From an uncultured virus (IMG/VR IMGVR_UViG_3300033753_000202) (Duplodnaviria > Heunggongvirae > Uroviricota > Caudoviricetes): 64,000 bases of DNA. Within the stretch, counting starts at the first letter, position 1. Each line of letters begins with the position of its first letter. Position numbers and translations under genes: made by a program. Under the pieces are notes generated by a model. That model was given only the letters and a program-made list of their open reading frames with translations, was not told the origin of the DNA and ran no database searches. This document shows, piece after piece, positions 19,266 to 62,493 of the stretch. The stretch lies in IMG/VR virus record IMGVR_UViG_3300033753_000202; one strand, 5' to 3'.

Positions 19266-19958
19266 TTGTTGAGCATCTTCAAACGTTTGAAATCTCTCAC
19301 CCTCTCCAACATCAATGCGCTGATCGACAAGGCGGAAGATCCGGTTAAAATGACGGATCAGTATTTGCGTGACATGGCAGAGGACATCCGCGATATCGAA
19401 GGCGCGGTCGCCAAGCAAATCGCCATCGCCAATCGCTTCGAACAGCAACTGAAAGAAGCCGAGCAGATGGTGCAACGCCGCGACGAACAGGCTTTGCAAG
19501 CGATGGAGCAGGGTAAGGAGGATCTGGCTCGTCGCGCTCTGCAAGATAAGCGTGAGCATCAATCCAAAGTGGACGCACTGAAGCCGCAGTATGAAACGGC
19601 TCGGGCGGCGGCTGACAAGCTGAAGGCGCAACTGCAGGAAATGAAAGATCAGTACAATTCGCTGAGAAGCAAGCGTGATATGCTGGTTGCCCGCGCCGAA
19701 GCCGCTAAAGCCCAGAAATCCATCAACGACAGTATGTCCTCCTTCAACGTGGATGGTACCAAGGCGGGCATCGACCGCATGATGGACAAGGTCGCTCGTA
19801 TGGAGGCGGAAGCGCAAGCGGGGATGGAGCTTCGCGGTGATACCAAAGATCTGGACGCTGAGCTTGCGGAACTCAACAAGGATAGCGGCATTGACGATGA
19901 ACTCGAAGCCCTTCGCGCACGGGTTGCCGCGAAGAAGAGTGGGCAACCGCAAGCCTAA
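19266..19958 (+). CDS. pspA: PspA/IM30 family protein
   Basis: DKAEDP.KM..Q, G.EDLAR.AL, coiled coil, IDDEL..L. Confidence 0.92.
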   Translation: MLSIFKRLKSLTLSNINALIDKAEDPVKMTDQYLRDMAEDIRDIEGAVAKQIAIANRFEQQLKEAEQMVQRRDEQALQAMEQGKEDLARRALQDKREHQSKVDALKPQYETARAAADKLKAQLQEMKDQYNSLRSKRDMLVARAEAAKAQKSINDSMSSFNVDGTKAGIDRMMDKVARMEAEAQAGMELRGDTKDLDAELAELNKDSGIDDELEALRARVAAKKSGQPQA

Positions 19959-20031
19959 TCCGTCTCACGGCAGAAGGGTTGTACTTTTCGGTACAGCCCT
20001 TCTTTTATGTCCTTGAAAGGAGGCTTCCGCA

Positions 20032-20580
20032 GTGGGGGTATTTTCTCGCTTGAAAAATTTGTGGCGTTCGCGTAAAGCGGAACCGGGGGTACCGAGTATC
20101 GATTCGTCGCAAGAAGACGTGGTTCCCGGTGACATTATTGATCTTGATCTTACGCATTGGACGGTCATCGGGACGGTGGCTTACTTTGATCCCGGTCATA
20201 CCCCGCATCGCTTTGCGTATTATTTGCAGTCTGGTTCGGAGCAAGCGTGTTTGATTCTTGAGCGGGGGCGTTCATTGGAAGCCTTGTTTGCTCGATTTGT
20301 TGAAGGTTCCTTGGACAATCCGCAAAAAGTACCGACGCAACTTAACGTTAGCGGGGTTCCGTATCGGTTGGAGTGGTATCGCAAGGATCAGGTGGTTACG
20401 AAGGGCAGTACCGATTTCCGCTCCCATGACCGGGTGATTTACTGGCGGTATCTCGGGGGTACGGACAAGGATAGCTATTTCATTCTGCAGTGGCAGGATG
20501 GGAAGTTTGTGGCGCTTGAAGCAGAACGGCTCCCCTCAGCGGCGTTTAAGATCATGAAGGTGGGTTCGCCGCAAGCATAA
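20032..20580 (+). CDS. DUF4178-like protein (PspA operon partner)
   Basis: Follows pspA; PGDI...W.V.G...Y pattern; context typical of Bacillales pspA operons. Confidence 0.6.
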   Translation: MGVFSRLKNLWRSRKAEPGVPSIDSSQEDVVPGDIIDLDLTHWTVIGTVAYFDPGHTPHRFAYYLQSGSEQACLILERGRSLEALFARFVEGSLDNPQKVPTQLNVSGVPYRLEWYRKDQVVTKGSTDFRSHDRVIYWRYLGGTDKDSYFILQWQDGKFVALEAERLPSAAFKIMKVGSPQA

Positions 20581-20608
20581 GCGTAAATTTGAATTTGCAG
20601 GTGATGGT

Positions 20609-21334
20609 ATGAAGGGTGGTTTTCGTCCTTCGACTGGTATGAGTTTTAACCAGCTTCGCATCGGCGTTCTGGCGGTCATGGCGGTGGTTTTGCTTATCGC
20701 TTTTATCGCCACCGGGGGTCGAGATAAGGTTGAGGACTATATCGACCAAACTTATGTGAAGGAAAGTTCTCAACAGACTGATTCTGGTTCTTTTAGTGTG
20801 TATTACGCTGATCGACCTTTTCATGAGGTCTATGAGGATATTATCTCCGCACATGAGCCGGAAAACGTGGAGATGCGGTCTTCCAAGCATTATGTGCTGA
20901 CGTATCCCCGCTCCACGGTTGGGGTAGCGGAACGGTCACCTACGGAGTCCTTGATTACGGTAGATTCCAAGTATAATCCAGAGCAACGCCGTGATATGCT
21001 CAAAATGTTGTTATATGTGCTTTTGGAGCTTGGGGATGCCGTTGGGGATGAAGTAGACTCCAATTACGATTACGACTACGATCATGACTATGACACGCGC
21101 TCTGATACTAGGTCTAAGTCGAAGTCTTATGAAGATTGGTCGGTAGATGAGCCAACTACGGGTGGTAGCGGTTCTTTCACTAAGCGTGGAGATCAGTACG
21201 ATCTACCTTCGAGTGGTTGGGACGACGATAATTCGAACGATGACTTTGATCTCGATTTTGACTGGTTTAGTGGGGGTAATGAAGTGCCGGAGCCTGAACT
21301 TTTCGAAGGTAGCGGCTCCTTTAATAAGCGATAG
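20609..21334 (+). CDS. DUF4247-like membrane-anchored protein with acidic tail
   Basis: TM helix then V.DYI...Y; position in the pspA operon; repeated GSGSF.KR. Confidence 0.5.
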   Translation: MKGGFRPSTGMSFNQLRIGVLAVMAVVLLIAFIATGGRDKVEDYIDQTYVKESSQQTDSGSFSVYYADRPFHEVYEDIISAHEPENVEMRSSKHYVLTYPRSTVGVAERSPTESLITVDSKYNPEQRRDMLKMLLYVLLELGDAVGDEVDSNYDYDYDHDYDTRSDTRSKSKSYEDWSVDEPTTGGSGSFTKRGDQYDLPSSGWDDDNSNDDFDLDFDWFSGGNEVPEPELFEGSGSFNKR

Positions 21335-23989: not shown

Positions 23990-24505
23990 GGGGTCGTCTT
24001 TTGGGTTCGACGGGCGACTGGGTGCAAGACTTTTGAGCGGTATGCAACCACCTTACGGGGCAACGCCAATTAAATGGCAACGAACAACTCGCTGTAGCCT
24101 GATAGCGTATCCGGCTACTCCTAAACGGAGAGGTCGCCTACCAACTCCTGCGGATCGAGGATAAGGCTGACGGACAGGAAAGACTGACTAGGGGTTTCCG
24201 ATAAGAACGTGGCGGTCTTATCGGAGAGGTATACCGAGAAAGGGAACCAAAACGGGCGTTCCGTATCCCGCGAAGTACGGGCGGTGAGTGTCTCGCGTAA
24301 CGCGATTGGGGGTATGCGGCGATTTTCGGAGCGAAGACTCCGACAAGACGGCTCACATTAATTTCTCCCCTTGGGAGAGAGCGAGTATCAGAAGACCTTG
24401 GTATTCGACTTATGGGTGGCTCCTTCCAATGTGCTAGGCTACGCTCAATAAATGGTCTTGAGGAAGGTTGTTCGGACAGGGGTTCGAATCCCCTCGACTC
24501 CACCA
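23990..24505 (+). ncRNA. ssrA: tmRNA, tag (A)GNEQLAVA**
   Basis: Acceptor GGGGTCG/CGACTCC-ACCA with G3:U70; GGGTTCGAC D-loop analogue; T arm AGGGG-TTCGAAT-CCCCT; tag ORF 24076-24105 after TAAAT. Confidence 0.92.
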
Positions 24506-35209: not shown

Positions 35210-35411
35210 CGGTTATTGATAATCCAAGAGGGGTTCAGACACATGAACCCCTCTTTTGTGTTTTCAGAGAAATGGAAATTCTACATAATTTCTTCGCTCT
35301 TTTCTGTACTTTCCTCACTTTTTATGTTTTATTTTCTTTCGAGTTGGAACTGGTGTTAATTTGTTTAGGTTTTGATTCTTTATTTTTGTGTTTTGTAAAG
35401 GAGGTTTTGTT

Positions 35412-37046
35412 GTGGGGCTTCGAGAACGCACGTGGTTTGGTCGGTACTCGCAGGTAAAGGACATTGAGACTTTGGAGCAACTGGACTTCCAGACCCGAAG
35501 CATTTCTTTACTTATCGGGCTGGCTTTACTTGCGGTTCTCAATCTCTATTTGGTGTTGTTTTATTATACAGATGCCTACCCACAGTCGAATGTTAAAGGT
35601 CTTTTGGTAGCGTTCACTGTCTTGGATTTTCTGTTGGCGTTTGTTTTTGCTTTTTGGTTGAATCTTGGCTCAAAGCGTAAGTCTCGTTCAATTCACTTGA
35701 TTCCTTACGTTGCACTCTTTACAGTTTCTTTGACTTTACTTTTCCGTTTTGTATTCTTACCCAGCGTCATTGACTATTTTTCGATTTTATGCATCCTTAT
35801 GATGGGAGTTATGCATAGACGATATCGAGTTTACTTGATGACCAACTTCCTCACGTCTATCCTCCTGCTTGTCTTCCTCTACCGCTCCAATGGTCTTCAT
35901 GCGCTCTTAGGAATCCCAGGGGGTAATGATGGTGACTTGGTTTCTACGCTGGTCTACATTTTCTTCTACATCCTTGTTTCGTTCTTGTTGTTTGACTCAG
36001 TTTTCGCGCATCGTTACTACCAGCGTAGTGCCAATACTATTTATGATGAGACGGTTCGTTTGTCGAATCAGCTTACGTCACAGCGGGATGTTATTGTAGA
36101 CACTATCAAAGGGTTGAATGCTTTTGCGCTCGATTTAGGTAAGCAGAGTAACATGCAGTCACAGTCTTTGGATGGGTTGGTTGTAGCATCCCGCGAAGTT
36201 GGAAAGGCGATTGAGCATCAAGCGTCAAGTGTGTCTGACATTTATGCGTCTCTGCAACAAACGGTACAGTCATTGGATCATTTTACACAGGAGTTGGCAT
36301 CCATCGCAGAGAACTCCAATGCAACGGCGGAGCTTTCGAATAAAGGTCGGGAACAACTTAGCGCATTTATCGGACATCTTAAAGCCTTCCACGCGTTCAC
36401 CCTCACCTTTCAAGAGGGGTATCGGGAAATGGTCGAGAAGCTTAATCAAATCATCAAGCACAATGAGGCGATCCAACAGGTGGCGCAAGCAACGAATATC
36501 CTTTCCCTTAACGCCAGCATTGAGTCTGCCCGCGCTGGGGAGCATGGGAAAGGTTTTTCTGTAATCGCCGCTGAGATAAGGAAGCTCTCGAAACAGTCTT
36601 CGGATCTGGCGAAAGCGGTTCAGCAGACGACGGTTACCCTTTGTGCGGGTGCGGAGAAGAATACGAAAGCTCTTGAATCGGGTAAAGCGGTCTTTGATCA
36701 GATTCGGAAGAGCGTTGAGGTTGTCGACGAGTCCTTCAGTTCCATAGTGGACGCTGTGCATGGGGTCGACAGCTCGACGCAAAATATGATGGTACATCTT
36801 ACACAAATCCATGACAACACTAAGGTCATTGAAGGCTCCCTCGGGGAGTTTAGTTCCTCTTTACAACAAAGTTCTGCTTCGACGCAAGAGATGGTTGCCA
36901 CTTTGGAGAACTTGGCTTCCTTTAATAAGACTTTTGATTCGAATGTTAGTGCGGTGCAAACATGGAGTCACCAACTGCTTGGTGCGGTGGGCGACACTTT
37001 GTTGGAGTTTGGGTTACCGTCTAATTCATCTAAACCTACCACTTGA
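35412..37046 (+). CDS. Methyl-accepting chemotaxis protein
   Basis: Multiple TM helices; signalling hairpin TNILSLNASIESARAGEHGKGFSVIAAEIRKLS. Confidence 0.9.
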   Translation: MGLRERTWFGRYSQVKDIETLEQLDFQTRSISLLIGLALLAVLNLYLVLFYYTDAYPQSNVKGLLVAFTVLDFLLAFVFAFWLNLGSKRKSRSIHLIPYVALFTVSLTLLFRFVFLPSVIDYFSILCILMMGVMHRRYRVYLMTNFLTSILLLVFLYRSNGLHALLGIPGGNDGDLVSTLVYIFFYILVSFLLFDSVFAHRYYQRSANTIYDETVRLSNQLTSQRDVIVDTIKGLNAFALDLGKQSNMQSQSLDGLVVASREVGKAIEHQASSVSDIYASLQQTVQSLDHFTQELASIAENSNATAELSNKGREQLSAFIGHLKAFHAFTLTFQEGYREMVEKLNQIIKHNEAIQQVAQATNILSLNASIESARAGEHGKGFSVIAAEIRKLSKQSSDLAKAVQQTTVTLCAGAEKNTKALESGKAVFDQIRKSVEVVDESFSSIVDAVHGVDSSTQNMMVHLTQIHDNTKVIEGSLGEFSSSLQQSSASTQEMVATLENLASFNKTFDSNVSAVQTWSHQLLGAVGDTLLEFGLPSNSSKPTT

Positions 37047-37579
37047 CGGGGTAGGACTTCTACGTTACAATAGCACATGGTTTTATGATATGGAGGTGGG
37101 CGGAATGCCGATGTCAAGGACGACAACTTATCTTCCACGGACGGAGAGGGGTTCCGCTCGACTCTGATCTTATTTATAAGTGAGAGGTAAATGGTTGACA
37201 CGCTCCGTGTGCATGGCGGTGTAGGTCAGGTGGGTCAAATAGGGCAACTTCATAGCATTACAACGGTAGTGGAGTATGGAAGTCACCTGCAAATCGACTA
37301 GCCCTATCAGGGGTAATCAACTCCATCACTCCGAATGCGAAGTGTCCGGTTGATCTTTATGAAAATGCCACTTTGGATATGTTTGCTGCCTCTGTTGTTG
37401 AGCAGTTAAAGGGTGCTTGGAATCTCAGACGATAATTCTTGACAATATAATAATCGCAAGGTGAAAGGCTCTGCGCAACTTTCTGCGCGAGCCTTATTTT
37501 GTTTTATTTGCGGACTTGTTTGCCTTACTTGAAGAATTAAGGTATACTGGTAGAAATTTCAGTGTGGGGAGGGGTATTC

Positions 37580-38632
37580 ATGAAAGTTGTCGCCGCTCTT
37601 ACGGCAGAAGATATCTTTAATGCCAACTGCCCCGGTGACATTTTTACGCAGGATGCCGCTTTCTTGAAGAAGGAGTATCAAACTCTTTCAAAGTTGTGGC
37701 ACCCGGATGTGTGTTCGCATCCACAAGCATCGGAGATTATGGCAAAAATCAATAAGTTGTATGGTCAGGCGCAAAAGGACTTGGCAAAAGGTACATGGGC
37801 TATCTCGAATGTGTATCTGGTTTGGACGACTAACGGTAGGTTGATCCGCTATAAGTATTTGGTCAGCCGTAAAATGCCAGAAGGGTTTGCGTACATCGGT
37901 AAGAACACGGTCATGTGCCTGTTTGCTAAGGCAAATCGAGACATTTACGAAAATTTCCTTCACAGCCTGACTTCGCTTAGGTATGCGGACAAGGCGATGG
38001 AGCAGGAGTTCAGCCGTTTCTTGCCAAAGGTTTTGGAGTCGTTTGAAGCGAAGGAAGAGGACGTCTTAGGGGTAATTCTCTCGAAACCTTCGGACTTGTT
38101 CTATCTTCGAGATATTCTCAATCATTATCATGGGAAGGTACCTCCGCGCCATGTTGCGTGGATTGTCAGCGCTTTGTTGAATTTGTCATGTTTCATCCAT
38201 TATAATCAGCGGGCGCATAACGGGATCACGCTTGATACCGTCACCATTTCGCCGCCGAATCACTCGGCAGTTATTGTTGGGGGTTGGGGCTTCTCGAAAC
38301 CGCTTGGTGATCGTCTTCTAGGGGTACCGGATGAAGTCTATGATATCATGCCTAACAAGGCTAAGTCTAGTGGTACTTCCACGCATTTGACGGACTTGGA
38401 AAGCATCAAGTTTATCGCTCGGACTTTGCTTGGGAATCCGGCTGGTACTATGTTAGTTCGTGATCCAGAAATTCCAAAGCCTTTTGCGGAGTGGGTGTTA
38501 CATCCAGCTGGGGATACACCTTTTAAGGAGTATACGCATTGGCAGAAGGTGTTGGACGCGTCGTGGGGTAAGCGGCAGTTTGTCGACATGCCTATTCGGT
38601 TTGAGGATATTTACCCACCTGAAAGGAAATAA
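37580..38632 (+). CDS. J-domain (HPD) fused to a kinase-like (pseudokinase) domain
   Basis: KKEY..LSK.WHPD...M..IN.LY; HVAWI...LL; HNGI....V.I; GGWGFS. Confidence 0.75.
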   Translation: MKVVAALTAEDIFNANCPGDIFTQDAAFLKKEYQTLSKLWHPDVCSHPQASEIMAKINKLYGQAQKDLAKGTWAISNVYLVWTTNGRLIRYKYLVSRKMPEGFAYIGKNTVMCLFAKANRDIYENFLHSLTSLRYADKAMEQEFSRFLPKVLESFEAKEEDVLGVILSKPSDLFYLRDILNHYHGKVPPRHVAWIVSALLNLSCFIHYNQRAHNGITLDTVTISPPNHSAVIVGGWGFSKPLGDRLLGVPDEVYDIMPNKAKSSGTSTHLTDLESIKFIARTLLGNPAGTMLVRDPEIPKPFAEWVLHPAGDTPFKEYTHWQKVLDASWGKRQFVDMPIRFEDIYPPERK

Positions 38633-38715
38633 ATCCTCGTTTTCAAGATATAGCTTGTCATCTTTAGACTTATGCGTTATACTACACACAATAAATTTAA
38701 GGAGGCGTTATACAT

Positions 38716-39645
38716 ATGGGTAGCGGACGTTGGAGTTCTTCCGACTGGGATGCTTACTCGCGCACTCATATCGCGGGCAAAAAGTCGACTTCTGGGTATG
38801 ACGGGATTTACAGCGCAAGTTCTCTGCACAAAGATCTCAATCCGAAAGGCGTGATCCGCGAGTCACGGGATTCGGCGGATAATCCGAACGCCACCCCGAT
38901 CATGGTGTTCCTCGACGTCACCGGGTCGATGTCGATGGTGTTGGACGCGATGGCGCGTACCGGACTGCCGACGCTGGCGACGGAGATCTACAATCGGAAG
39001 CCTGTTGCAGACCCACACATCCTGTTTGGGGGTATCGGTGATCCGTACTACGATGATGCTCCGCTTCAAGTCACGCAGTTCGAGGCGGACATTCGCATCG
39101 CGGAACAGCTCACGAAAATCTGGCTTGAGAAGGGCGGTGGTATAAATGACTTCGAGGGTTACGCATTGGCGTGGTACTTCGGGGCGTTCAAAACCAGCAC
39201 CGATCACTTCGAGAAGCGCGGCAAAAAGGGCTACCTGTTTACTGTAGGCGATGAGCGCCCGACGCCGGAGCTTACGAAGGGGCAAATTCTCGAAGTGTTC
39301 GGGGATGAAGTGCAAGCCAACATGAGCGCGGAACAGCTCTTGAATGCGGTTACACGGCAGTACGAGGTCTTTCACATCGTGGTCAAGGAAGGCAGTGGCT
39401 GGCTGCATGACAGCAAGGAAGTGGAGCGCCAGTGGCGTGAACTGCTCGGTCAACGGGTCATCTTCCTCGACGATCATACCAAGATGGGTGAGGTTATCGT
39501 TTCCACCCTGCAGGTTATGAACGGGGAGGACAAAGCTAAGGTTGCCGCAAGTTGGGATGGTTCGACCAGTATCGTGGTTGCCAAAGCGCTCGACTCGCTG
39601 ACACTGATTCCGCAAGATCCAAACACGGGTATCCGTCGCTTCTAA
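38716..39645 (+). CDS. vWA-domain protein
   Basis: LDVTGSM MIDAS-like motif, GIGD, QFE.D, EKGGG, GYLFT.GDE. Confidence 0.8.
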   Translation: MGSGRWSSSDWDAYSRTHIAGKKSTSGYDGIYSASSLHKDLNPKGVIRESRDSADNPNATPIMVFLDVTGSMSMVLDAMARTGLPTLATEIYNRKPVADPHILFGGIGDPYYDDAPLQVTQFEADIRIAEQLTKIWLEKGGGINDFEGYALAWYFGAFKTSTDHFEKRGKKGYLFTVGDERPTPELTKGQILEVFGDEVQANMSAEQLLNAVTRQYEVFHIVVKEGSGWLHDSKEVERQWRELLGQRVIFLDDHTKMGEVIVSTLQVMNGEDKAKVAASWDGSTSIVVAKALDSLTLIPQDPNTGIRRF

Positions 39646-39813
39646 TCGCTTCTAACTGAGTTTTAACTCAGTGTATCAAAAGTTCTTAAGCACTGGAGTA
39701 ACTCCAGTGCTTTTTTCTTAACTATGTGTTTTTGTGTAGGAGAAAGTTGTCTTGTAAGGAGAAAAAGGTTATAATGCTTGTATAAATAATTCTCGTAGAG
39801 AGGGGTTCTTTGA

Positions 39814-41106
39814 ATGGGGAATTTCGATAAGATAGTTAGAGTGGTTATTGGAGCGAATTTTGGGGATGAAGGTAAGGGTTTGATGACGGACTATTTTGTT
39901 TCGCAAGCTCTTGATGAAGGACGTAAACCGTTGGTCATCCGATTTAATGGTGGAGCGCAAGCGGCACATACGGTCGTAACTCCAGAAGGGTTGGAGCATG
40001 TCTTCAGTCATTTCGGTTCCGGTACGTTGCAAGGGGTACCAACCTATTTGAGTCAGTTTTTCATCTCGAATCCGACAATGTTCGTGAAGGAGCATAGGGT
40101 TCTTTGTAAGAAACTTAAAGGAAAAATCCCACTTATTTATGTGCATCCTGACTCTCTTGTCACTACTCCAGTGGATGTATGGATAAATCAAGCAGTTGAG
40201 CGAGCAAGGGGTGATGCTCGGCATGGAAGTTGTGGTTTGGGGATCAGTGAAACGGTAGTTCGGAATGAGCATCCGCTTACCAAGGTGCATTTGCGCGTTC
40301 GTGATCTGTTGAATCACAATGAGCTTCGCGCCAAGTTGAAATTCTTGGTCTATGACTATATGCCCATGCGGTTATCGGAGTTGGGGTATCCGAAACTTCA
40401 TCATGAGTTTCTTTCGTTGGACGTCAATCTTTTGTTCAATAACTTTTTGGATGATGTTCAGTTCTTCCTTGATCATGTCTTAATCACGACGGACAAAGCG
40501 CTTTTCGAACATTTCGATGCACTTATTTTTGAAGGCGCTCAAGGTTTGTTGCTGGATCAGGACTTGGAGGAGTTTGCACCGCATATTACTCATAGTAAAA
40601 CCGGGTTGATCAATGTTCTCAAGATTATCGCAGGTTCAGAAGGTTGGTTGCGTTCACTTCAATATCCAGTTGCGTCTAATGAGACGGGGGTGATTATGGA
40701 AGTTTGTTATGTGACCCGAGCTTATCTTACACGTCATGGTGCAGGGAGGATGGACACGGAGCTTCCCGAGAAACCGTATCGGGGTATTCATGATCCGACG
40801 AATCTTCCAAATGAGTGGCAAGGTTCTTTGCGTTTTGGGTATTTGGATCTCGATCAGCTCAATTTTTATGTGCTTTTAGATAAGCTCCAGGGTGAGTCCT
40901 TCAAGTTTTATCTTTCCGTTGCAGTTACTTGTATGGATCAAATCGATCCGGTTTGCTATGCGGTTCGTAATGGGAAGTTAGAGCAACATACGAAAGAATC
41001 GCTTCTCGACGTCATTTCGAGTACGAGTCTTTTTGCACGGATGTACTCATCATGGGGTAGGACACGGGAAACAGTTTTGGACTCCTTTCAATTGTCTTTA
41101 CTCTAG
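39814..41106 (+). CDS. Divergent adenylosuccinate synthetase (PurA-like)
   Basis: GANFGDEGKG, RFNGGAQAAHT, FEGAQGLLLD, RAYLTRHGAG, R.G.LD. Confidence 0.85.
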   Translation: MGNFDKIVRVVIGANFGDEGKGLMTDYFVSQALDEGRKPLVIRFNGGAQAAHTVVTPEGLEHVFSHFGSGTLQGVPTYLSQFFISNPTMFVKEHRVLCKKLKGKIPLIYVHPDSLVTTPVDVWINQAVERARGDARHGSCGLGISETVVRNEHPLTKVHLRVRDLLNHNELRAKLKFLVYDYMPMRLSELGYPKLHHEFLSLDVNLLFNNFLDDVQFFLDHVLITTDKALFEHFDALIFEGAQGLLLDQDLEEFAPHITHSKTGLINVLKIIAGSEGWLRSLQYPVASNETGVIMEVCYVTRAYLTRHGAGRMDTELPEKPYRGIHDPTNLPNEWQGSLRFGYLDLDQLNFYVLLDKLQGESFKFYLSVAVTCMDQIDPVCYAVRNGKLEQHTKESLLDVISSTSLFARMYSSWGRTRETVLDSFQLSLL

Positions 41107-41318
41107 GTCTTTAACCCTCACTGATGTGAGGGTTTCTTTTATGGGGGATAGGACTAGTTGTTTTTCTGGGTTGAGGAGGTTTTAAGTTTAGGTTGAAGAA
41201 AGGAGAGGTTCCACGTGAACCTCTCCTTTTATTTTGATTTTATGTCTTTTCTTGTAACTAGGTGCAGGGATTTCTTACTTCGGATTATACTTTTAGGAAA
41301 TTGAAAGGAGGGTTATTC

Positions 41319-41681
41319 ATGCATCAAGTCTTGGGTAATGTGACGATTTCGCAAAGCGTTTTCGCTATTTTGGCGTCTAAAGCCACCTTGAAGGTTGAAG
41401 GGGTAAGTCGTTTCGGGGCTACTCTGATGGAAACTATCAACTCGTTCATCACTCGGAATACGCATCAGCAGGGAATTACGGTTCAGCAAATTGATGACTC
41501 TGCGGTGATTTTTGACATTCGTCTTGTTGTGGATTATGGGTTTAATCTGTTGAAGGTTGCCGCCGATGTTCAAAAAGCAGTGATCGAAGAGGTCGAAGCT
41601 ATGACGGGATACCGAGTGGATGCGGTTAATGTGACTTTTGTTGATATTCGGATCAATACTTCTGAAGCACCTTCGAAGTAA
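41319..41681 (+). CDS. Asp23/Gls24 envelope stress family protein
   Basis: G.V.I...V...A..A...VEGV, V.YG.N...VA..VQ..V...VE.MTG..V..VNV. Confidence 0.9.
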   Translation: MHQVLGNVTISQSVFAILASKATLKVEGVSRFGATLMETINSFITRNTHQQGITVQQIDDSAVIFDIRLVVDYGFNLLKVAADVQKAVIEEVEAMTGYRVDAVNVTFVDIRINTSEAPSK

Positions 41682-41754
41682 TCTTTCTACGACGGCATAT
41701 AAGGCTAAGGCTTTTGTCTTAGCCTTCATTGTTTATATAGCGGGGTGTTTTTCT

Positions 41755-42684
41755 TTGGAAGTCGAGTTAGAGTATATTTGTCCATTTTGTAAGACACGGA
41801 ATCATGAGTCAGAAAGGTATTGTGTCATCTGCGGTTGCGATCTGACAGGTGCTGAGGCGCTTCCCAAGGAGAGTTCGCTCAAGCGACTTTCATCCGTGCT
41901 TAAGTGGTTTTTCCGTGCGGTATGCTGGGCGTACGTGTTCATGTTTGTCGTTTTGACCCTGAATTACACGATGATCATCATGCTTCCTTATGGAATTCAG
42001 CGTTCTTTGGAGGGTATTCCGACGTTACAATCGTTCTCGTCACGTGTCGCGGCGGAGATCAATCCGTGGTTGTGGGGTTTTGCCAACGTTTCTTTCGATA
42101 GGCAGGAGTACGCCCCTATCGAGGTCGATTTCTTCACGGAGGATTTTGAGCTTCGCACGGATTTGAAGGGGTACGGTTCTCAGGATAATCCAGTTCCTTT
42201 GGGTGTAGAAGTTGATTTTGCGGTGAAGCCTTATTTTGGTTCTAACGTAGACAACTTTACTATTCGTGTGAATGAGGTCGTTCGTGGAGAAGCAGTCGAA
42301 CCTCTCCTGCGTGATATGGGGTTAACCACTGAGGACTTGGAATCTTCGTTTGGGGGTTATTATGAGTATCTTTTGATAAACGCAACGTTCACTTGGCACT
42401 CGTCTTCCCTTGGAATGGACTCGATAACTCTCCCAAACAATCCGTTTTATGGTTTGGTTTCACCCAATGGCGAGCATTACTCACAGGCTTTATTTAAGCC
42501 GACGAGCCATACGCTAAAAAGTGTGTTGTATCCCGGCGATTCGTTTTCTGGTTGGGTTGCTTACGAGGTACCGAAATCACAGGATGAGTTTTTCTTAACC
42601 ATTGAAGGGGTGCAAGGTACGCTCGACGATTACGAACATATCACGGTTTATTTTTCTGTGAATAAAGACTTAAAGGTTGGATAG
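41755..42684 (+). CDS. Zinc-ribbon + TM + DUF4352-like extracellular protein
   Basis: CPFC...N.....C..CG, TM helix, LYPG....GWVAYEVPK. Confidence 0.65.
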   Translation: MEVELEYICPFCKTRNHESERYCVICGCDLTGAEALPKESSLKRLSSVLKWFFRAVCWAYVFMFVVLTLNYTMIIMLPYGIQRSLEGIPTLQSFSSRVAAEINPWLWGFANVSFDRQEYAPIEVDFFTEDFELRTDLKGYGSQDNPVPLGVEVDFAVKPYFGSNVDNFTIRVNEVVRGEAVEPLLRDMGLTTEDLESSFGGYYEYLLINATFTWHSSSLGMDSITLPNNPFYGLVSPNGEHYSQALFKPTSHTLKSVLYPGDSFSGWVAYEVPKSQDEFFLTIEGVQGTLDDYEHITVYFSVNKDLKVG

Positions 42685-43454: not shown

Positions 43455-43541
43455 GGGGAAGCGGCGAAGAAGGCGAGTCGCGGCGGACTGTAAATCCGTT
43501 GTCTAATGGCTAAGTGAGTTCGAATCTCACCTTCCCCACCA
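43455..43541 (+). tRNA. tRNA-Tyr(GTA)
   Basis: GCGGA-CTGTAAA-TCCGT, long variable arm, CCA. Confidence 0.9.
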
Positions 43542-43547
43542 TAACAT

Positions 43548-43624
43548 GGCGTGGTGGTGAAACGGTCTAACACACCGCCCTTTCAAGGCGGCATTTACGG
43601 GTTCGAATCCCGTCCACGTCACCA
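43548..43624 (+). tRNA. tRNA-Glu(TTC)
   Basis: CCGCC-CTTTCAA-GGCGG, CCA. Confidence 0.92.
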
Positions 43625-43630
43625 TATCAT

Positions 43631-43705
43631 GGTACGTTCGTCTAGTGGTCTAGGACACGAGTGGCGCGACGCCGAGAGACAGGGGTTCGAATCCCCTACG
43701 TACCA
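43631..43705 (+). ncRNA. tRNA-like RNA with remodelled anticodon arm
   Basis: Perfect acceptor GGTACGT/ACGTACC, D arm and T arm; anticodon arm replaced by GGCG-cga-CGCC. Confidence 0.65.
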
Positions 43706-43727
43706 TTCTTAACTTTACGCCATCTTT

Positions 43728-43814
43728 GCGCCCGTGGCGGAAGTGGCGAGACGCACGGGACTTAAAATCCCGAGACTTTGGGTCATACAGGTTCGATTCC
43801 TGTCGGGCGCACCA
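43728..43814 (+). tRNA. tRNA-Leu(TAA)
   Basis: CGGGA-CTTAAAA-TCCCG, CCA. Confidence 0.92.
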
Positions 43815-43827
43815 TTGAGTTAAATAT

Positions 43828-43912
43828 GCGTCTATGGCGGAACTGGCAGACGCGCACGACTCAAAATCGTGTGTCTTCGGACGTGAGGGTTCGACTCCCT
43901 CTAGACGCACCA
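43828..43912 (+). tRNA. tRNA-Leu(CAA)
   Basis: CACGA-CTCAAAA-TCGTG, CCA. Confidence 0.92.
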
Positions 43913-43921
43913 TAATTTCCT

Positions 43922-44008
43922 GCGTCCGTGGCGGAATTTTGGCAGACGCGCTAGATTTAGGCTCTAGTGTCTTCGGACGTGCAGGTTCGAATCCTGCCGG
44001 ACGCACCA
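43922..44008 (+). tRNA. tRNA-Leu(TAG)
   Basis: CTAGA-TTTAGGC-TCTAG, CCA. Confidence 0.92.
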
Positions 44009-44016
44009 TATTTGAT

Positions 44017-44133
44017 GGGAGGTTACTTGGAGCGGAGGGTAGCTCCCTCTGGAGGTTCGATTCCTCCTTGGTGGTCTAGGCTGGTGCGTGGTAGCATCGG
44101 TCGGCGGGTTCGATTCCCGCAACCTCCCACCCA
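44017..44133 (+). ncRNA. tRNA-like RNA with two T arms
   Basis: 8-bp acceptor GGGAGGTT/AACCTCCC; GGAGG-TTCGATT-CCTCC and GCGGG-TTCGATT-CCCGC. Confidence 0.7.
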
Positions 44134-44137
44134 ACAT

Positions 44138-44225
44138 GCGGTCGTGGCGGAATTAGGCAGACGCGCTATCTCGAGGGGGTAGTGTCCGCAAGGGCGTGAG
44201 GGTTCGACTCCCTCCGACCGCACCA
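44138..44225 (+). tRNA. tRNA-Leu(GAG) with C33
   Basis: CTATC-TCGAGGG-GGTAG, Leu-type body, A73, CCA. Confidence 0.85.
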
Positions 44226-44250
44226 AAACTACAGTAAACGAGGGGTATTT

Positions 44251-44724
44251 TTGCAGGAATTATTCAAACTTGGATTGGTGGCTTGTGATATTGTACCGGA
44301 GAAACAAGCTCGCAGAATAGGGCACTCGGAGCATTTGACTTTGTCGTTTCCTCATCGAAGATCGGTGGTATTGTTTCGCGCTGAGTGGGACAAAGAAGCG
44401 TTCATGAAAGTTGGAGTGCATTGGGTTTCACCCAAGGGAAGTGACAAGCTTGTGCTTGATTATAAGCACGATATTCTTGGTTTGTACTTGGGGTATCCTC
44501 CCGCCGCTGTAACGTCATATATGCGTGGAAACACCGACTGTACCATGTATTTTGGGGGTACTGGCTTCCGGGCAAGGTATGCGGATCTTGAGGACAATTT
44601 GGACTATCTCTGCCGACATTACGGAAGTACGGGTTTCAAGTGCAGTGTTCGTCTGGATGCTCAGGATAAGTCTTACGCTGTTACGGAGGTTTGGGATGTA
44701 AATACGCTTTCCAGAGTTGGATAA
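44251..44724 (+). CDS. Hypothetical protein
   Basis: ORF with H..LG..LGYP..AV motif. Confidence 0.6.
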   Translation: MQELFKLGLVACDIVPEKQARRIGHSEHLTLSFPHRRSVVLFRAEWDKEAFMKVGVHWVSPKGSDKLVLDYKHDILGLYLGYPPAAVTSYMRGNTDCTMYFGGTGFRARYADLEDNLDYLCRHYGSTGFKCSVRLDAQDKSYAVTEVWDVNTLSRVG

Positions 44725-45254
44725 TAGCTCGTAGCTTGCGGTTAAAAGGATTGAAGGGAACAAATGACGTTCTCTGTTTCTGAGCGCAAGGCTATAGCTC
44801 TAGTGCTTTTCGTTGTACTTCAAGTTGCCCTATGCGATTCTGAACAGCTTGCGGTTTTTGATTATTATAATTATACAATGCCGTGGGTTCCTCGGACTTT
44901 GAACAAGGAAGTCTACACAGCGGTTTCGCGGGCATTTCAGCGGTCAACTGACCTAAGTGCAAGTTATATTCAACCGGAATCTTTCTCTATAACATATGTC
45001 TCGGATTAGGGGGTAATGATATGCCACGGCATTCACAGGTTACGGTTATCGTCACGGGTGATCCTAAAGAGTTGGTAGAACACTGTGCGTCAATGGCACG
45101 AGCGGGGGTCGCATTCTCTTTCAAGATGTGGGAAATTCGTGCTAAGTTTGACACCTTGGCGGGAGCGCAAACTTTTGCCAATAATCTTCGCGTCAATAGT
45201 GGGTTGCATACCCATATCAAACCTTAGACGGGTTTCCGTCTAAGGTTTTCCTCT

Positions 45255-45347
45255 GGATCGGTGGCTGAGCGGTTGAAGGCGGCGCGTTTCTAATGCGTTG
45301 GGGGAGTTTGACTTCCTCCGAGGGTTCGAATCCCTCTCGATCCTCCA
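45255..45347 (+). tRNA. Class II (Ser-like body) tRNA with TCT (Arg) anticodon
   Basis: GCGCG-TTTCTAA-TGCGT, long variable arm, U73, CCA. Confidence 0.8.
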
Positions 45348-45372
45348 CTATTTTTTTTTTGAGGTGGTTTTC

Positions 45373-45747
45373 TTGGTCACGTCTGATAAGAAGCTCAAAC
45401 AAGCGGTGGACGATTTGTTCGCCCGTGGAGTTCTTCCGGTCGTCGATGTGGAGTTTGACTATTTGCAGAGCGCGTATATCGAGAGGAAACCGTTGTTTTC
45501 GCATTTTCAGCAGTTGCGTGAGGCGGGTACGCTCCCGTCGCTGGACTCCCTTTCGAAGGAGCAGTTGCGCCATCTTTGGTATATTGAGGTAGTCCCGGAC
45601 AGACACATCGCTCAGCTCTTTGGTGTACCGCTGAAGGCTGTTCGTCGCCGTCGGCAAGAGTTGGGTATCACTCAGCTTTCCTGTATGGTGGCGCAGTTGG
45701 AGTTTGGCGGTAAGACCTTGATCGCCTACCCTCTCCCCTCAGCATAA
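45373..45747 (+). CDS. Putative HTH DNA-binding protein
   Basis: D..IAQLFGV....V..RR..LGI; GAGGTGG RBS. Confidence 0.6.
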   Translation: MVTSDKKLKQAVDDLFARGVLPVVDVEFDYLQSAYIERKPLFSHFQQLREAGTLPSLDSLSKEQLRHLWYIEVVPDRHIAQLFGVPLKAVRRRRQELGITQLSCMVAQLEFGGKTLIAYPLPSA

Positions 45748-45987
45748 AGCGGGAGTAGGGGTATCTTGCTTTATGGTAGTCTTAGCTTCTCCACCTTATC
45801 TCACTTCGTTAATTTTTAACGACTACCTGAAAATTGAGGGGATTCCTAGTATGCGACTCTTGAAAAATCTTCAATTTAATGGTACACTAGTAGAGAAATG
45901 CGGGAGCCTTGGGGTTACCGGGGGCGGCGGTAGATAAAACCCTTATCGAAAGCCGTACATCTCTCGCGACTCTCTACTGGAGGTATA

Positions 45988-46190
45988 TGGTCATGATGCT
46001 GGGGGTACAAGAAATCGTTGCGGCGGCTCCGGTTTTGATGGGGAAAGAAGTTCGTCTGCATTTGCACACAAATCATGGTGGTCGGAAATCCTATGTGGTT
46101 ACCATCAAGAAGGTTACCCCGGCGGGCTTGGTCACGACCAATGGCAACCATAATTTGCAGACGGTCATCGGTGTGGAGACGCTCTTGTAA
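45988..46190 (+). CDS. Small hypothetical protein
   Basis: GGAGGT RBS. Confidence 0.55.
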
Positions 46191-46203
46191 GGAGGAGTAG
46201 TTT

Positions 46204-46458
46204 ATGCGTTCTCGACGGCGCACCAACTATGCGATTGAGGGGGTACGTCGGGCAGTCGATACCACTATCCGCACGAGTTACCCGCCGCATGTCAAGGTGG
46301 AGCGTCTCCGCGCGATCCATATGGTATTAAACAACTTCAAGTATAGTATTCGGTCACTTCCAGACTGGGATGAACTCCAGCGTTTGGAAGTTCGAATACT
46401 CGATTCCATTAACGACTATCAGTCGCAACTTCCTTCCGGTGTAGTCACCCATTACTGA
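46204..46458 (+). CDS. Small hypothetical protein
   Basis: AAGGAGG RBS. Confidence 0.6.
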   Translation: MRSRRRTNYAIEGVRRAVDTTIRTSYPPHVKVERLRAIHMVLNNFKYSIRSLPDWDELQRLEVRILDSINDYQSQLPSGVVTHY

Positions 46459-46508
46459 TTGGGGTCTTGCGCTTATCAGACTGACATGGTAGGCTATGAA
46501 CAAATGTT

Positions 46509-46604
46509 GGATGGTTGGCAGAGTGGTTGAATGCGCTCGTCTTGAAAGCAAGAAGGGGTGTGAGGAGCATCCTTCGGGGGGTTAGAGTCCCTCACTGTCC
46601 GCCA
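46509..46604 (+). tRNA. Degenerate tRNA-Ser(TGA)
   Basis: CTTGAAA loop, long variable arm, mismatched anticodon stem, T loop TTAGAGT. Confidence 0.65.
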
Positions 46605-46613
46605 TACTTTTGC

Positions 46614-46706
46614 GGAGCCGTGTCCGAATGGTAAGGAGGCGGTCTTGAAAATCGCTTAAGGCGGTTCGTCACCGCTGTGCAGGTTCGAGTCCTGTCGGCT
46701 CCACCA
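46614..46706 (+). tRNA. tRNA-Ser(TGA)
   Basis: GCGGT-CTTGAAA-ATCGC, long variable arm, A73, CCA. Confidence 0.85.
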
Positions 46707-46813
46707 TACTTTTCTCTTTTGGTGGAGAGAAGGTAAGGGTTGGATTTGTGGATTATCTATTAATGTGGTCGTTTGTCTTCCTTGCGATCCATGTGCATTG
46801 GGGGTATTAAAGA

Positions 46814-47017
46814 GTGCGGTTTGAAGGTACGTGTCCTTTTGTTGGTTGTGCAAAAACGTATCCGCATGAGCATTCCACTTGTCCTGACTGTGGTGCAGTT
46901 CGATTCGGGAATATGTTTTGTAACACTTGTGTAAAGACATGGGATATCAGTCCTGTTATGAAGATGCGACTTATCTCAGCGAACACTGAACGTGGCACGA
47001 AGATCTATCCGCTTTGA
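46814..47017 (+). CDS. Small Cys-rich (zinc-finger-like) protein
   Basis: CPFVGC...H...CPDCG...CNTC. Confidence 0.5.
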   Translation: MRFEGTCPFVGCAKTYPHEHSTCPDCGAVRFGNMFCNTCVKTWDISPVMKMRLISANTERGTKIYPL

Positions 47018-47039
47018 TTTGGTATTTTAGTTTGTATAT

Positions 47040-47113
47040 GCATCCGTACCCAAGTGGTTTAAGGGGCGAGTCTGCAAAACTCGTATTCGCTGGTTCGAAT
47101 CCAGTCGGATGCT
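47040..47113 (+). tRNA. tRNA-Cys(GCA), no encoded CCA
   Basis: CGAGT-CTGCAAA-ACTCG, U73. Confidence 0.88.
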
Positions 47114-61942: not shown

Positions 61943-62010
61943 TCTTTTCCATTACAGTCATTGAACATAGAATATACTAGGTATGTTCTTGATTCGAGGT
62001 GGTTATTGTT

Positions 62011-62493
62011 ATGTTGGAGTCCGCTATCGGTGATATTACGCAAATTCGTGGGGTTGAGTACATCTGCAACGCGGCAAATCCGCAGGGGATCATGGGTGCT
62101 GGTGTGGCTGGAGCCATCGCTCGGGCGGCGGGCGAACGTTTTCTTGAAGAGGTTCGTCGTGTCGCGCAGACTTACCGAGTGAAAGCGGGCGGTATCTATG
62201 TTACTTCTGCTGGAAATCTCCCTTATCGTGGGATTATTCATTTGGCTTCTGTTCCTGCTCCCGGACGGCATTCGACTTACAGTATTGTGGAGTCGTGCTT
62301 GAGGAATTTGGTGCAGTTTGCATCTTCTTCGCAGGCTACGGCGATAGCCCTGCCGCTTCTCGGCACGGGGGTAGGAAGACTTGATCCAGCACAGCTTAAG
62401 TCGTTGTATCAGAAGTATTTGCAGGAGCATCGAACGCGCTTTGTGGTGGTCGAGTTTAACCCTGCTGTCTATGAAGCTTTTGTCAGGGGGTAG
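62011..62493 (+). CDS. Macrodomain (ADP-ribose binding/hydrolase) protein
   Basis: GDIT, NAAN..G.MGAGVAGAI..AAG, T.AGNL, IIH, IALP.LGTGVG. Confidence 0.92.
   Translation: MLESAIGDITQIRGVEYICNAANPQGIMGAGVAGAIARAAGERFLEEVRRVAQTYRVKAGGIYVTSAGNLPYRGIIHLASVPAPGRHSTYSIVESCLRNLVQFASSSQATAIALPLLGTGVGRLDPAQLKSLYQKYLQEHRTRFVVVEFNPAVYEAFVRG

Follow-up and report, generated by a model that had tools for sequence, protein, structure and literature searches.

Introduction

Proteins with a von Willebrand factor A (vWA) domain are known from pairs with MoxR-type AAA+ ATPases (CbbQ-CbbO, NorQ-NorD, CoxD-CoxE and RavA-ViaA), and the salvage of nicotinamide adenine dinucleotide (NAD) is reportedly controlled by NrtR, a regulator said to act as a repressor that responds to adenosine diphosphate ribose (ADP-ribose). 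Among the relatives of adenylosuccinate synthetase (PurA, EC 6.3.4.4), PurZ has Ser or Gly where PurA has its catalytic Asp, according to the available part of its description (PMC12884076). The same part of that source counts 481 phage homologues in family PF00709 and presents a tree of 767 sequences, of which 251 (246 of them prokaryotic) form a PurA group and 151 a PurZ group, the other PurA homologues being left undiscussed there. Here we analyse a module of three adjacent genes, termed A, B and C, on a 64,000-nucleotide stretch of DNA from an uncultured virus (IMG/VR record IMGVR_UViG_3300033753_000202), which is referred to at its full length as the window; the phage system NARP3, described in the accessible part of its source as PnuC plus NadR, is not this module (PMC13464706).

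An earlier reading of the window, made from the sequence alone (the sequence-only reading), had proposed a J-domain pseudokinase, a vWA protein and a divergent PurA side by side. All three open reading frames (ORFs) were located, adjacent and on the + strand:

37580-38632, + strand: gene A, whose J-domain at the N-terminus (HPD at residues 41-43) is joined to the fold of a protein kinase
38716-39645, + strand: gene B, a vWA-fold protein with a complete metal-ion-dependent adhesion site (MIDAS)
39814-41106, + strand: gene C, a predicted paralogue of the PurA-fold ligases

The motifs named in that reading bore up well. The HPD J-domain and the kinase fold reading HNG and GGW in A agree with a family alignment and with an AlphaFold2 (AF2) model, the DVTGS motif of B proved to be part of a full MIDAS in a modelled vWA fold, and alignments to PurA agree that C keeps GDEGKG and EGAQG and reads NEWQGSLR in the aspartate loop and GSC for GTT.

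The module is a widespread, uncharacterised three-protein set, and no described system combines all three proteins. Indeed, no described A-B-C triad was found by full-text literature searches, which matches the earlier statement that no function had been characterised for the combination. C may be a PurA-fold ligase of new specificity with dedicated partners, and at the level of the system the module may prove to be new altogether.

Recurrence, gene order and natural fusions

The family of C is large, with 7975 of 8000 scored candidates at E<=1e-10. Its surroundings were compared in two samples: a bacterial one, built with one genome per species, in which 549 relatives of C were found among the first 600 pattern matches and the best 80 loci were taken, and a viral one comprising the best 80 of 495 IMG/VR relatives of C. 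A homologue of B accompanies C in 73 of the 80 bacterial loci, six of the seven misses lying at contig ends (B is absent from locus L057 and overlaps C in L030), and in 74 of the 80 viral loci, so that the two genes are linked in 147 of 160. A homologue of A is found in 56 of the 80 bacterial loci (53 of the 66 with at least 2.3 kb of upstream sequence) and in 39 of the 80 viral ones. These counts identify B-C as the core of the module and A as a frequent accessory. In the bacterial loci the order is always A-B-C, on one strand. That the three genes belong together, as had been proposed, is borne out by the recurrence of this order in most of the 160 loci; they clearly do co-occur elsewhere.

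The module is also carried by cultured phages. Among GenBank phage records, C is present in 227 and B in 219, from the same hosts, namely about 200 from Mycobacterium, 10 from Rhizobium and six from Vibrio. In mycobacteriophage Tonenili, three consecutive products annotated as 'kinase', hypothetical and 'PurA-like' match the A-B-C order, and the 'kinase' aligns with the profile of A at 99.1% probability over 305 columns and carries the HPD motif.

In 29 of the 80 viral loci the place of A is taken by a protein of about 200 residues with a Met/Gly-rich tail, which never occurs alongside A. When the comparison is made less strict, the family also extends to a second cluster and to an ORF, unannotated, that precedes B in Vibrio phage Va1, and comprises 30 of the 43 upstream proteins compared. 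Its members are about 190-260 residues long, with 28-46% Met plus Gly in the last 80 residues (examples are L122:8463-9068, L109:8357-9088 and L001:3249-3962), and neither Pfam nor PHROGs has a family for them. The tail is reminiscent of the C-terminal GGM repeats of GroEL.

Natural fusions were found among the longer relatives, joining B to C in five proteins (P0131, P0132, P0135, P0136 and P0137) and A to B in two (P0134 and P0138). All of the fusions that cover the motifs bear signatures of the C clade such as GSCG and TRHG. On this Rosetta-stone basis B would work physically with both A and C, with the reservation that single metagenomic fusions may be gene-calling artefacts. A complex prediction for B and C gave a score of 0.01 (mark 0.32), which counts neither way on binding.

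Two genes downstream of C in the window were considered as further members and rejected, as neither is conserved beside the module: an Asp23-family gene (41262-41681) and a gene for a zinc-ribbon/DUF4352 protein (41638-42684). Comparison of the latter with the zinc-ribbon proteins that adjoin four clostridial copies of the module gave a non-significant E of 0.09, and no fourth gene is conserved downstream in the bacterial loci.

Gene C, a divergent paralogue of PurA

C falls within PF00709 (1.4e-34, 120 bits against a cut-off of 27), and its best sequence matches in the PDB are 3HID (E 5.1e-15), 1KJX and 1ADE. Its scores against the curated purA equivalog models lie far below the cut-offs (72.6 bits against 395.55 for TIGR00184 and 95.8 against 402 for NF002223), as does that against the PurZ model NF038379, which aligns over residues 8-71 only (26.7 bits against 300). 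Among the PHROGs, C belongs to phrog_1211, a family bearing a PurZ-type name.

Individual residues were compared through HMMER alignments to the PurA entries of the PDB and by aligning C, with MAFFT, to three canonical PurAs encoded by carrier genomes, and the two comparisons agree. C keeps two motifs of PurA, GDEGKG (with its catalytic Asp) at the P-loop and G-x-x-R-(E/D)-T at the C-terminus, along with the His in NGGxxAxHT, the Gln in EGAQG and the guanine-motif Asp. In all of the 17 members of the C clade that were aligned, G17-D18-E19-G20-K21-G22, H52, the Q243 of EGAQG and R340 are invariant, and D375 is nearly so. Equally invariant in the 17 are three departures from PurA, GTTG, the site of the Thr pair for the 5'-phosphate of IMP (inosine monophosphate), being replaced by GSCG, TRVG by TRHG and TKLD, the guanine motif (N/T)KxD, by TC(L/M)D, which reads TCMD in the window protein; at the first and last of these sites the Ser and the Asp are retained, and the Thr-to-Cys and Lys-to-Cys replacements are fixed. 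The aspartate loop of PurA, G-x-T-T-G-R-x-R-R, reads N-E-W-Q-G-S-L-R-F in the window protein and T-N-x-P-N-x-x-Q-G-x-L-R-F in the clade consensus, a single Arg being left, and about 45 residues that follow the guanine motif in PurA are missing from the clade. With the residues for phosphoryl transfer kept and the aspartate pocket rebuilt, an amine acceptor other than aspartate is the natural inference; the sequence-only reading had suggested a different amine or nucleotide. Judged from sequence, C seems to have the complete machinery that would phosphorylate a 6-oxopurine nucleotide and a remodelled pocket for its second substrate.

C is not a PurZ, given that the catalytic Asp is kept in 17 of 17 clade members; the earlier reading had excluded PurZ on the same ground, its statement that PurZ has Ser at this position agreeing with the available part of the published account (PMC12884076). 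Neither of the two familiar identities, PurZ or ordinary PurA, survived the catalytic-Ser test, the aspartate-loop test and the curated scores, and both were rejected for C.

The conventional alternative is that C serves ordinary purine salvage as a divergent adenylosuccinate synthetase that boosts the making of adenosine monophosphate for the replication of the phage, with A and B as unrelated neighbours. Membership of PF00709, the catalytic Asp, His and Gln and the database label of adenylosuccinate synthetase all speak for it. Nevertheless, the aspartate loop is replaced, the TIGR00184 score is less than a fifth of its cut-off, B adjoins C in nearly all of the loci compared and is fused to it in several proteins, and a true purA coexists with the paralogue in each of five bacterial genomes tested (564-605 bits for purA, 81-140 bits for the paralogue). 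This last result identifies C as an extra paralogue rather than the housekeeping PurA, and taken together these observations make the conventional explanation extremely unlikely.

A quick tree was built from every second locus, taking only sequences 360-470 residues long, and three canonical PurA sequences formed its outgroup. A fully supported branch (Shimodaira-Hasegawa-like approximate likelihood ratio test, SH-aLRT, of 100) sets the C clade (79 rows) apart from canonical PurA. Within the clade, phage and bacterial copies are interleaved, with nine changes of label.

Ten of 13 longer homologues of C (P0121-P0126, P0128-P0130 and P0133) contain intein families (Intein_splicing, LAGLIDADG_3). 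Nine intein-type insertions lie at NGGxQAxHT, a sign that this site is strongly constrained, and the insertion of P0133, which contains LAGLIDADG, lies at a second site further downstream. An intein-bearing C is encoded at L031:4858-7167, and one of the intein examples comes from a Paenibacillus genome.

Gene B, a vWA protein with an intact MIDAS

B carries a complete MIDAS, formed by DVTGSM (D67-x-T69-G-S71) with T176 and D179, and across 36 aligned members of its family D67, T69, G70, S71, M72, T176 and D179 are invariant in all. The same alignment shows an invariant M1-G2 at the N-terminus and a conserved G-x-x-R-F at the very C-terminus. No Pfam family, VWA included, matches B, nor does any PDB entry by sequence; it does match phrog_2971, of unknown function (8.7e-48). 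The AF2 model (predicted local distance difference test, pLDDT, of 92.1) was matched by Foldseek to the vWA domains of integrin beta-I and Ku80 (E 5e-6 to 1e-4, TM 0.33-0.49). By both its fold and its motif B belongs with the vWA/MIDAS proteins, although outside the Pfam models. Searched against 1.84 billion cluster representatives, its profile retrieved 890 at E<=1e-30; in nearly every one of the 150 best the alignment begins at residue 1.

Variant arrangements of B were observed in a few loci. A homologue from a gammaproteobacterial metagenome-assembled genome (MAG; L051:3354-4964) has a C-terminal U-box (PF04564, 5.2e-24), a eukaryote-type E3, chaperone-linked domain. Two tandem B paralogues lie upstream of C, with A absent, beside DUF6782 putative metallopeptidases in loci L017 and L042 (3945-5937), which derive from an alphaproteobacterial MAG and a Micavibrio MAG.

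The fixed N-terminus of B invites the thought that C could be a protein-modifying ligase, joining the activated purine nucleotide through C6 to a protein amine such as the N-terminal Gly that removal of Met would expose on B, or the Lys of a target, with DnaK and the J-domain presenting the substrate. Such an N6-linked nucleotidylation would be new. The invariance of M1-G2 and the near-universal alignment of the best 150 relatives from residue 1 would fit such a function, as would the B-C fusions, the loss from C of the residues for an acidic substrate, with one Arg and several amide and aromatic residues now invariant, and the chaperone-linked partners, namely the J-domain and, on one B, the U-box of L051. 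The PurA family offers no precedent for it, however, and although the N-terminus of B is free in the B-C fusions, nothing places it at the active site, which leaves this step a matter of conjecture. We consider a protein-modifying activity distinctly unlikely.

Gene A, a J-domain pseudokinase

The ORF list opens A at a GTG codon (37562-38632); translation more likely begins at the ATG at 37580, given the GGGGAGGGG ribosome-binding site 5 nt upstream of it. At the HPD motif the protein reads WHPD, and its counterparts of HRD and DFG are AHNGI and GGW. Pfam DnaJ aligns with residues 33-67 below threshold (23.1 bits against a cut-off of 27.8), and A matches the PHROG 'kinase' family phrog_3043 at 3.3e-6. 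In an alignment of 33 family members P42 is invariant and H41 is present in 30, the HPD motif, D43 included, being lost in three; the HRD position reads H-N-x and the DFG position G-G-W, so that the residues of an active kinase, namely the HRD Asp, the DFG Asp and the conserved VAIK Lys of the N-lobe, are wanting in the family. In the homologue from Tonenili an Asp remains at the DFG position.

The AF2 model of A (pLDDT 93.5) has as its top structural match in the PDB the DnaJB1-PKA chimera J-PKAc (E 2.4e-8), followed by kinases that include the pseudokinase VRK3. By sequence the PDB gave only weak matches, to a J-domain and to VRK3 (E ~0.02). Since a kinase fold is present without the catalytic residues, A is a pseudokinase, in which a J-domain precedes a kinase fold that is catalytically dead.

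Genomic neighbourhood

In 25 of the 80 bacterial loci a cluster of proteins of about 240 residues is encoded directly upstream of A (or B), co-directionally in 10 and divergently in 15, the member in L004 overlapping A by 4 nt. All of the four representatives scanned contain NUDIX and NrtR_WHD domains, which identifies them as NrtR. In L082 the gene order is NrtR, Prs-like, isochorismatase (PncA-type), NAMPT, A, B, C; extra PncA-type and NAPRTase genes are found in L014 and L076, an ADP-ribosylglycohydrolase gene in L045 and a Nudix gene in L080. Palindromes of the TGTTATT...AATAACA type, which are candidate NrtR sites, occupy the nrtR-A spacer of four Competibacteraceae loci. The other bacterial flanks consist of ordinary housekeeping genes that vary between loci.

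Some phage loci also have genes of NAD metabolism close by. NadM-Nudix lies within 10 kb in three, directly upstream in L109, and NadV is found directly upstream of the Met-rich partner in L091 as well as within loci L089 and L133. In Rhizobium phages, PRTase-like and NadM/Nudix genes lie a few genes upstream. A NAPRTase-family gene is present in 12 of 32 module-bearing phage records, or eight of 18 when only those at least 90% complete are counted, figures that have no base rate from module-less phages beside them. One viral contig encodes a protein with WDGH and Tad3 domains three genes upstream of A-B-C (L098:6220-7302), and PARP-domain proteins are encoded in two viral loci, L145 among them. 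Tad3 is an inhibitor of type I Thoeris.

The sequence-only reading had put forward a signalling or conflict system. In a system of this kind, a weapon against phages or other elements, the PurA-like enzyme would make a toxic or signalling nucleotide and the vWA protein and pseudokinase would act as sensor and regulator. The module is indeed common to phages and many bacterial phyla, with the interleaving on the tree noted above, vWA and pseudokinase domains are frequent in conflict systems, a few flanks match candidate-defence models (PDC-S10 in L075, PDC-S15 in L015, PDC-S01 in L051 and PDC-S07 in L080), and Tad3 and PARP genes occur nearby in single phage loci. Against this, A, B and C found no match in PADLOC 2.0 at E<=0.1, and of 139 bacterial flanks 125 found none at E<=1e-10, most of the 14 that did having generic domains. 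The bacterial flanks are housekeeping and locus-specific, the module sits inside nrtR/NAD-salvage operons, and hundreds of lytic phages carry it. The informative context is therefore NAD metabolism rather than defence, and this part of the earlier proposal finds little footing; we regard a conflict system as unlikely.

A different function is suggested by other viral neighbours and by the window itself, in which the following features are found:

8109-9608: TROVE-like protein (DUF2828 + DUF7788), phrog_850 'RNA-binding protein', 1.1e-120
23990-24505: tmRNA (transfer-messenger RNA) gene, Rfam RF00023, 71.2 bits
32114-33148 and 43455-47113: transfer RNA (tRNA) arrays flanking the A-B-C module, from ARAGORN and Rfam

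The module might help in RNA or tRNA repair or modification, acting with phage RNA-repair genes and tRNA arrays on an RNA-linked nucleotide. Besides the flanking arrays, the TROVE-like gene and the tmRNA, this would account for the Thg1-like (11), Pnkp/RNA ligase (10), TROVE-like DUF2828/DUF7788 (seven) and RlaP (five) genes that, together with LemA (17), are counted in the 80 viral loci, and for the polynucleotide kinase that Tonenili encodes three genes upstream. In its seven loci the TROVE-like family lies within 10 kb of the module, and upstream of A where the gene order was inspected (e.g. L104:6146-7702). The RNA-repair neighbours, however, belong for the most part to a single group of viral contigs that are close relatives, as do the LemA genes, and are absent from the bacterial loci, and PurA-fold enzymes act on free mononucleotides. 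A role in RNA repair or modification is thus most improbable.

Transcription signals at the locus

Signals resembling promoters and terminators surround the three genes:

35388-37046: 552-residue protein with an MCP signalling domain and several predicted membrane segments, directly upstream of the module
37472-37489, + strand: terminator-like hairpin that ends the upstream unit, to which the MCP-signalling-domain gene belongs
37520-37548, + strand: promoter-like TTGCCT-17-TATACT upstream of A, a match to the consensus only, at 9 of 12 positions
38655-38683, + strand: promoter-like TTGTCA-17-TATACT upstream of B
39688-39712, + strand: strong terminator-like hairpin between B and C, with an 11-bp stem and a T run
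39747-39775, + strand: promoter-like TTGTCT-17-TATAAT upstream of C
41113-41134 and 41198-41230, + strand: two terminator-like hairpins that close the module

An AAGGAGG ribosome-binding site precedes the ATG of B at 38716. Each gene had been credited with a promoter of its own. The hexamers are present at 37520, 38655 and 39747 and the three sites score 9-10 of 12 hexamer matches; the region holds nine promoter-like sites against 5.7 +/- 2.6 in shuffled sequences, so that the hexamers are consistent with promoters and do not go beyond chance. A further promoter-like site lies at 37043-37071, and the interval of about 420 nt between the MCP-like gene and the terminator that precedes A (37047-37470) holds no ORF of at least 80 residues and no Rfam match.

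Proposed mechanism

Taken together, the module may be composed of a non-aspartate PurA-type ligase, a vWA hub and a pseudokinase that recruits DnaK, acting on the breakdown of NAD+, a composite to which we give about an even chance. C would bind GTP-Mg and a nucleotide resembling inosine monophosphate (IMP), form a 6-phosphoryl intermediate in the manner of PurA and transfer the nucleotide so activated to a non-aspartate amine, a chemistry proposed because of the residues retained and replaced in its active site. Instead of adenylosuccinate, the reaction would yield an adenine nucleotide that is N6-substituted or plainly aminated.

B would be the obligatory partner and hub that couples C with A. 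It may bind C, as the linkage and fusions suggest, perhaps through coordination of an acidic residue by the MIDAS or through its conserved C-terminal tail. A would in turn bind B and, on the evidence of its HPD motif and the fusions, recruit the host Hsp70 DnaK to the complex through its J-domain, DnaK then serving as a motor in formal analogy with the AAA+/vWA 'activase' pairs. The sequence-only reading had assigned a regulatory role to A and B; a coupling of the three proteins is supported by the natural fusions, and regulation itself is so far a supposition.

In bacteria, the operon structure with NrtR suggests that expression would go up once NrtR is relieved by ADP-ribose, in other words during the consumption of NAD+. 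In phages, the module would support the economy of adenine nucleotides and NAD+ during infection, possibly against NAD+-depleting immunity, which is the weakest step of the proposal; its phage role is probably auxiliary or one of counter-defence. It is more doubtful that the module is a fourth means by which phages answer NAD+-directed immunity and, in bacteria, a pathway for NAD stress, making a hitherto undescribed adenine nucleotide as ADP-ribose accumulates and with it rebuilding the pool of adenylates and NAD+ or neutralizing a signal derived from ADP-ribose, and we lean against it.

Several observations weigh against the composite as a whole or in part. A is dispensable: 13 of the 66 bacterial loci that have space for it lack it, as do roughly half of the viral ones. 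The nucleotide site of C has itself changed relative to PurA, with N38 replaced by Gln, T129 by Cys, V273 by His and K331 by Cys in what we take to be the numbering of the Escherichia coli enzyme, and as a result the nucleotide may not be IMP, or the nucleoside triphosphate may not be guanosine triphosphate (GTP). NrtR accompanies 25 of the 80 bacterial loci and not all of them, and the 64-kb window contains no NrtR or NAD-salvage gene. Genes related to NAD lie within 10 kb in only about 5-8 of the 80 viral loci, the enrichment of NadV in phages is without a control, and the commonest viral neighbours are RNA-repair-type genes and LemA, not NAD genes. Finally, the separate promoter-like sites and the terminator between B and C mean that co-transcription is not evident in this phage.

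The window and its element

The element, visible only as 64 kb, is probably a huge phage or a similar mobile element and not a cell. All of the sizeable ORFs lie on one strand, and 18 tRNA genes are grouped in arrays in addition to the tmRNA; a tmRNA is also reported, in the available part of PMC9476963, for cluster C mycobacteriophages, which carry the same module. No phage structural genes were seen within the 64 kb, and for this reason a phage identity is likely and not proven. Most ORFs belong to no family, the recognizable genes encoding thymidylate kinase, thymidylate synthase, an amidoligase, the DUF2828/DUF7788 TROVE-like protein, a Macro-domain protein, PspA, YitT and the MCP-signalling protein. 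The Macro-domain gene, 21 kb from the module, is the only one related to ADP-ribose that was seen in the window:

61999-62493: Macro-domain protein (PF01661, 4.6e-26), with an ADP-ribose-binding or -hydrolysing fold

Nucleotide comparison with GenBank phages matched only short patches inside B and C, in Vibrio phages, megablast found no match for positions 1-24999, and tblastn found none for an 882-residue ORF; from these comparisons, the phage has no close cultured relative. In the tree of C described above the copies nearest by path length are those of Clostridia and other Bacillota, the window's own C sitting on a long branch with no starred support. The carrier is a probable huge phage of a Bacillota-like host.

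Other features of the window were recorded in passing. ARAGORN lists a tRNA with a four-base anticodon 'cttg' (tRNA-???) at 44034-44128 that is not in the Rfam list, and Rfam lists an extra tRNA at 43631-43705. Genes of a cellular type, PspA/IM30 followed by DUF4178 and DUF4247 proteins (19266-21334), lie amid the phage-like content, and an ORF of 1767 residues at 6-5309, open at the start of the window, has no Pfam or PHROG match.

Comparison with known systems

The linked set is present in hundreds of large phages, including about 200 sequenced and easily manipulated mycobacteriophages, and in many bacterial phyla. Every database names C 'adenylosuccinate synthetase'; for the C clade an annotation of the PurA or PurZ type is wrong and is unfit for metabolic reconstructions. 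If the link to NAD+ is true, the module would be a new player in the conflict between phages and bacteria over NAD+ and would catalyse a new purine reaction, and if it does answer NAD+-directed immunity, it would bring a new chemistry of the PurA fold together with a new use of Hsp70 as the motor of a vWA adaptor.

The NrtR regulon and NARP1-3 are approached in genomic setting, since bacterial copies of the module lie in nrtR operons with NAMPT, PncA and Prs, and some phage copies lie beside NadV or NadM-Nudix. None of the NARP enzymes (Adps+Namat, Nampt+Nmnat, PnuC+NadR) is encoded in the module or in the 64-kb window, and no NAD-forming chemistry is evident for a PurA fold, in which the module differs from NARP.

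The closest structural likeness of A is to the J-PKAc chimera and to VRK3, the best matches of its model, and A has the HPD motif; it is a natural protein of bacteria and phages, and its catalytic residues are absent. The MoxR AAA+/vWA pairs resemble the module in placing a MIDAS-bearing vWA adaptor beside the enzyme that it presumably serves, together with a supplier or recruiter of an ATP-driven remodeller. Among the neighbours of the 160 loci no conserved AAA+ cluster was found. The presumed motor is instead the host DnaK, engaged through the J-domain, and in many phages a Met/Gly-rich protein replaces A.

PurZ and PurZ0, of the 2-aminoadenine pathway, are, like C, phage-borne paralogues of PurA with a changed specificity, although PurZ still uses aspartate. 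With PurA itself C shares the fold family, the P-loop, three catalytic residues (Asp, His and Gln) and the guanine-motif Asp, and it differs in the replacement of its aspartate loop, in scoring below the equivalog level and in its tight linkage to a vWA gene.

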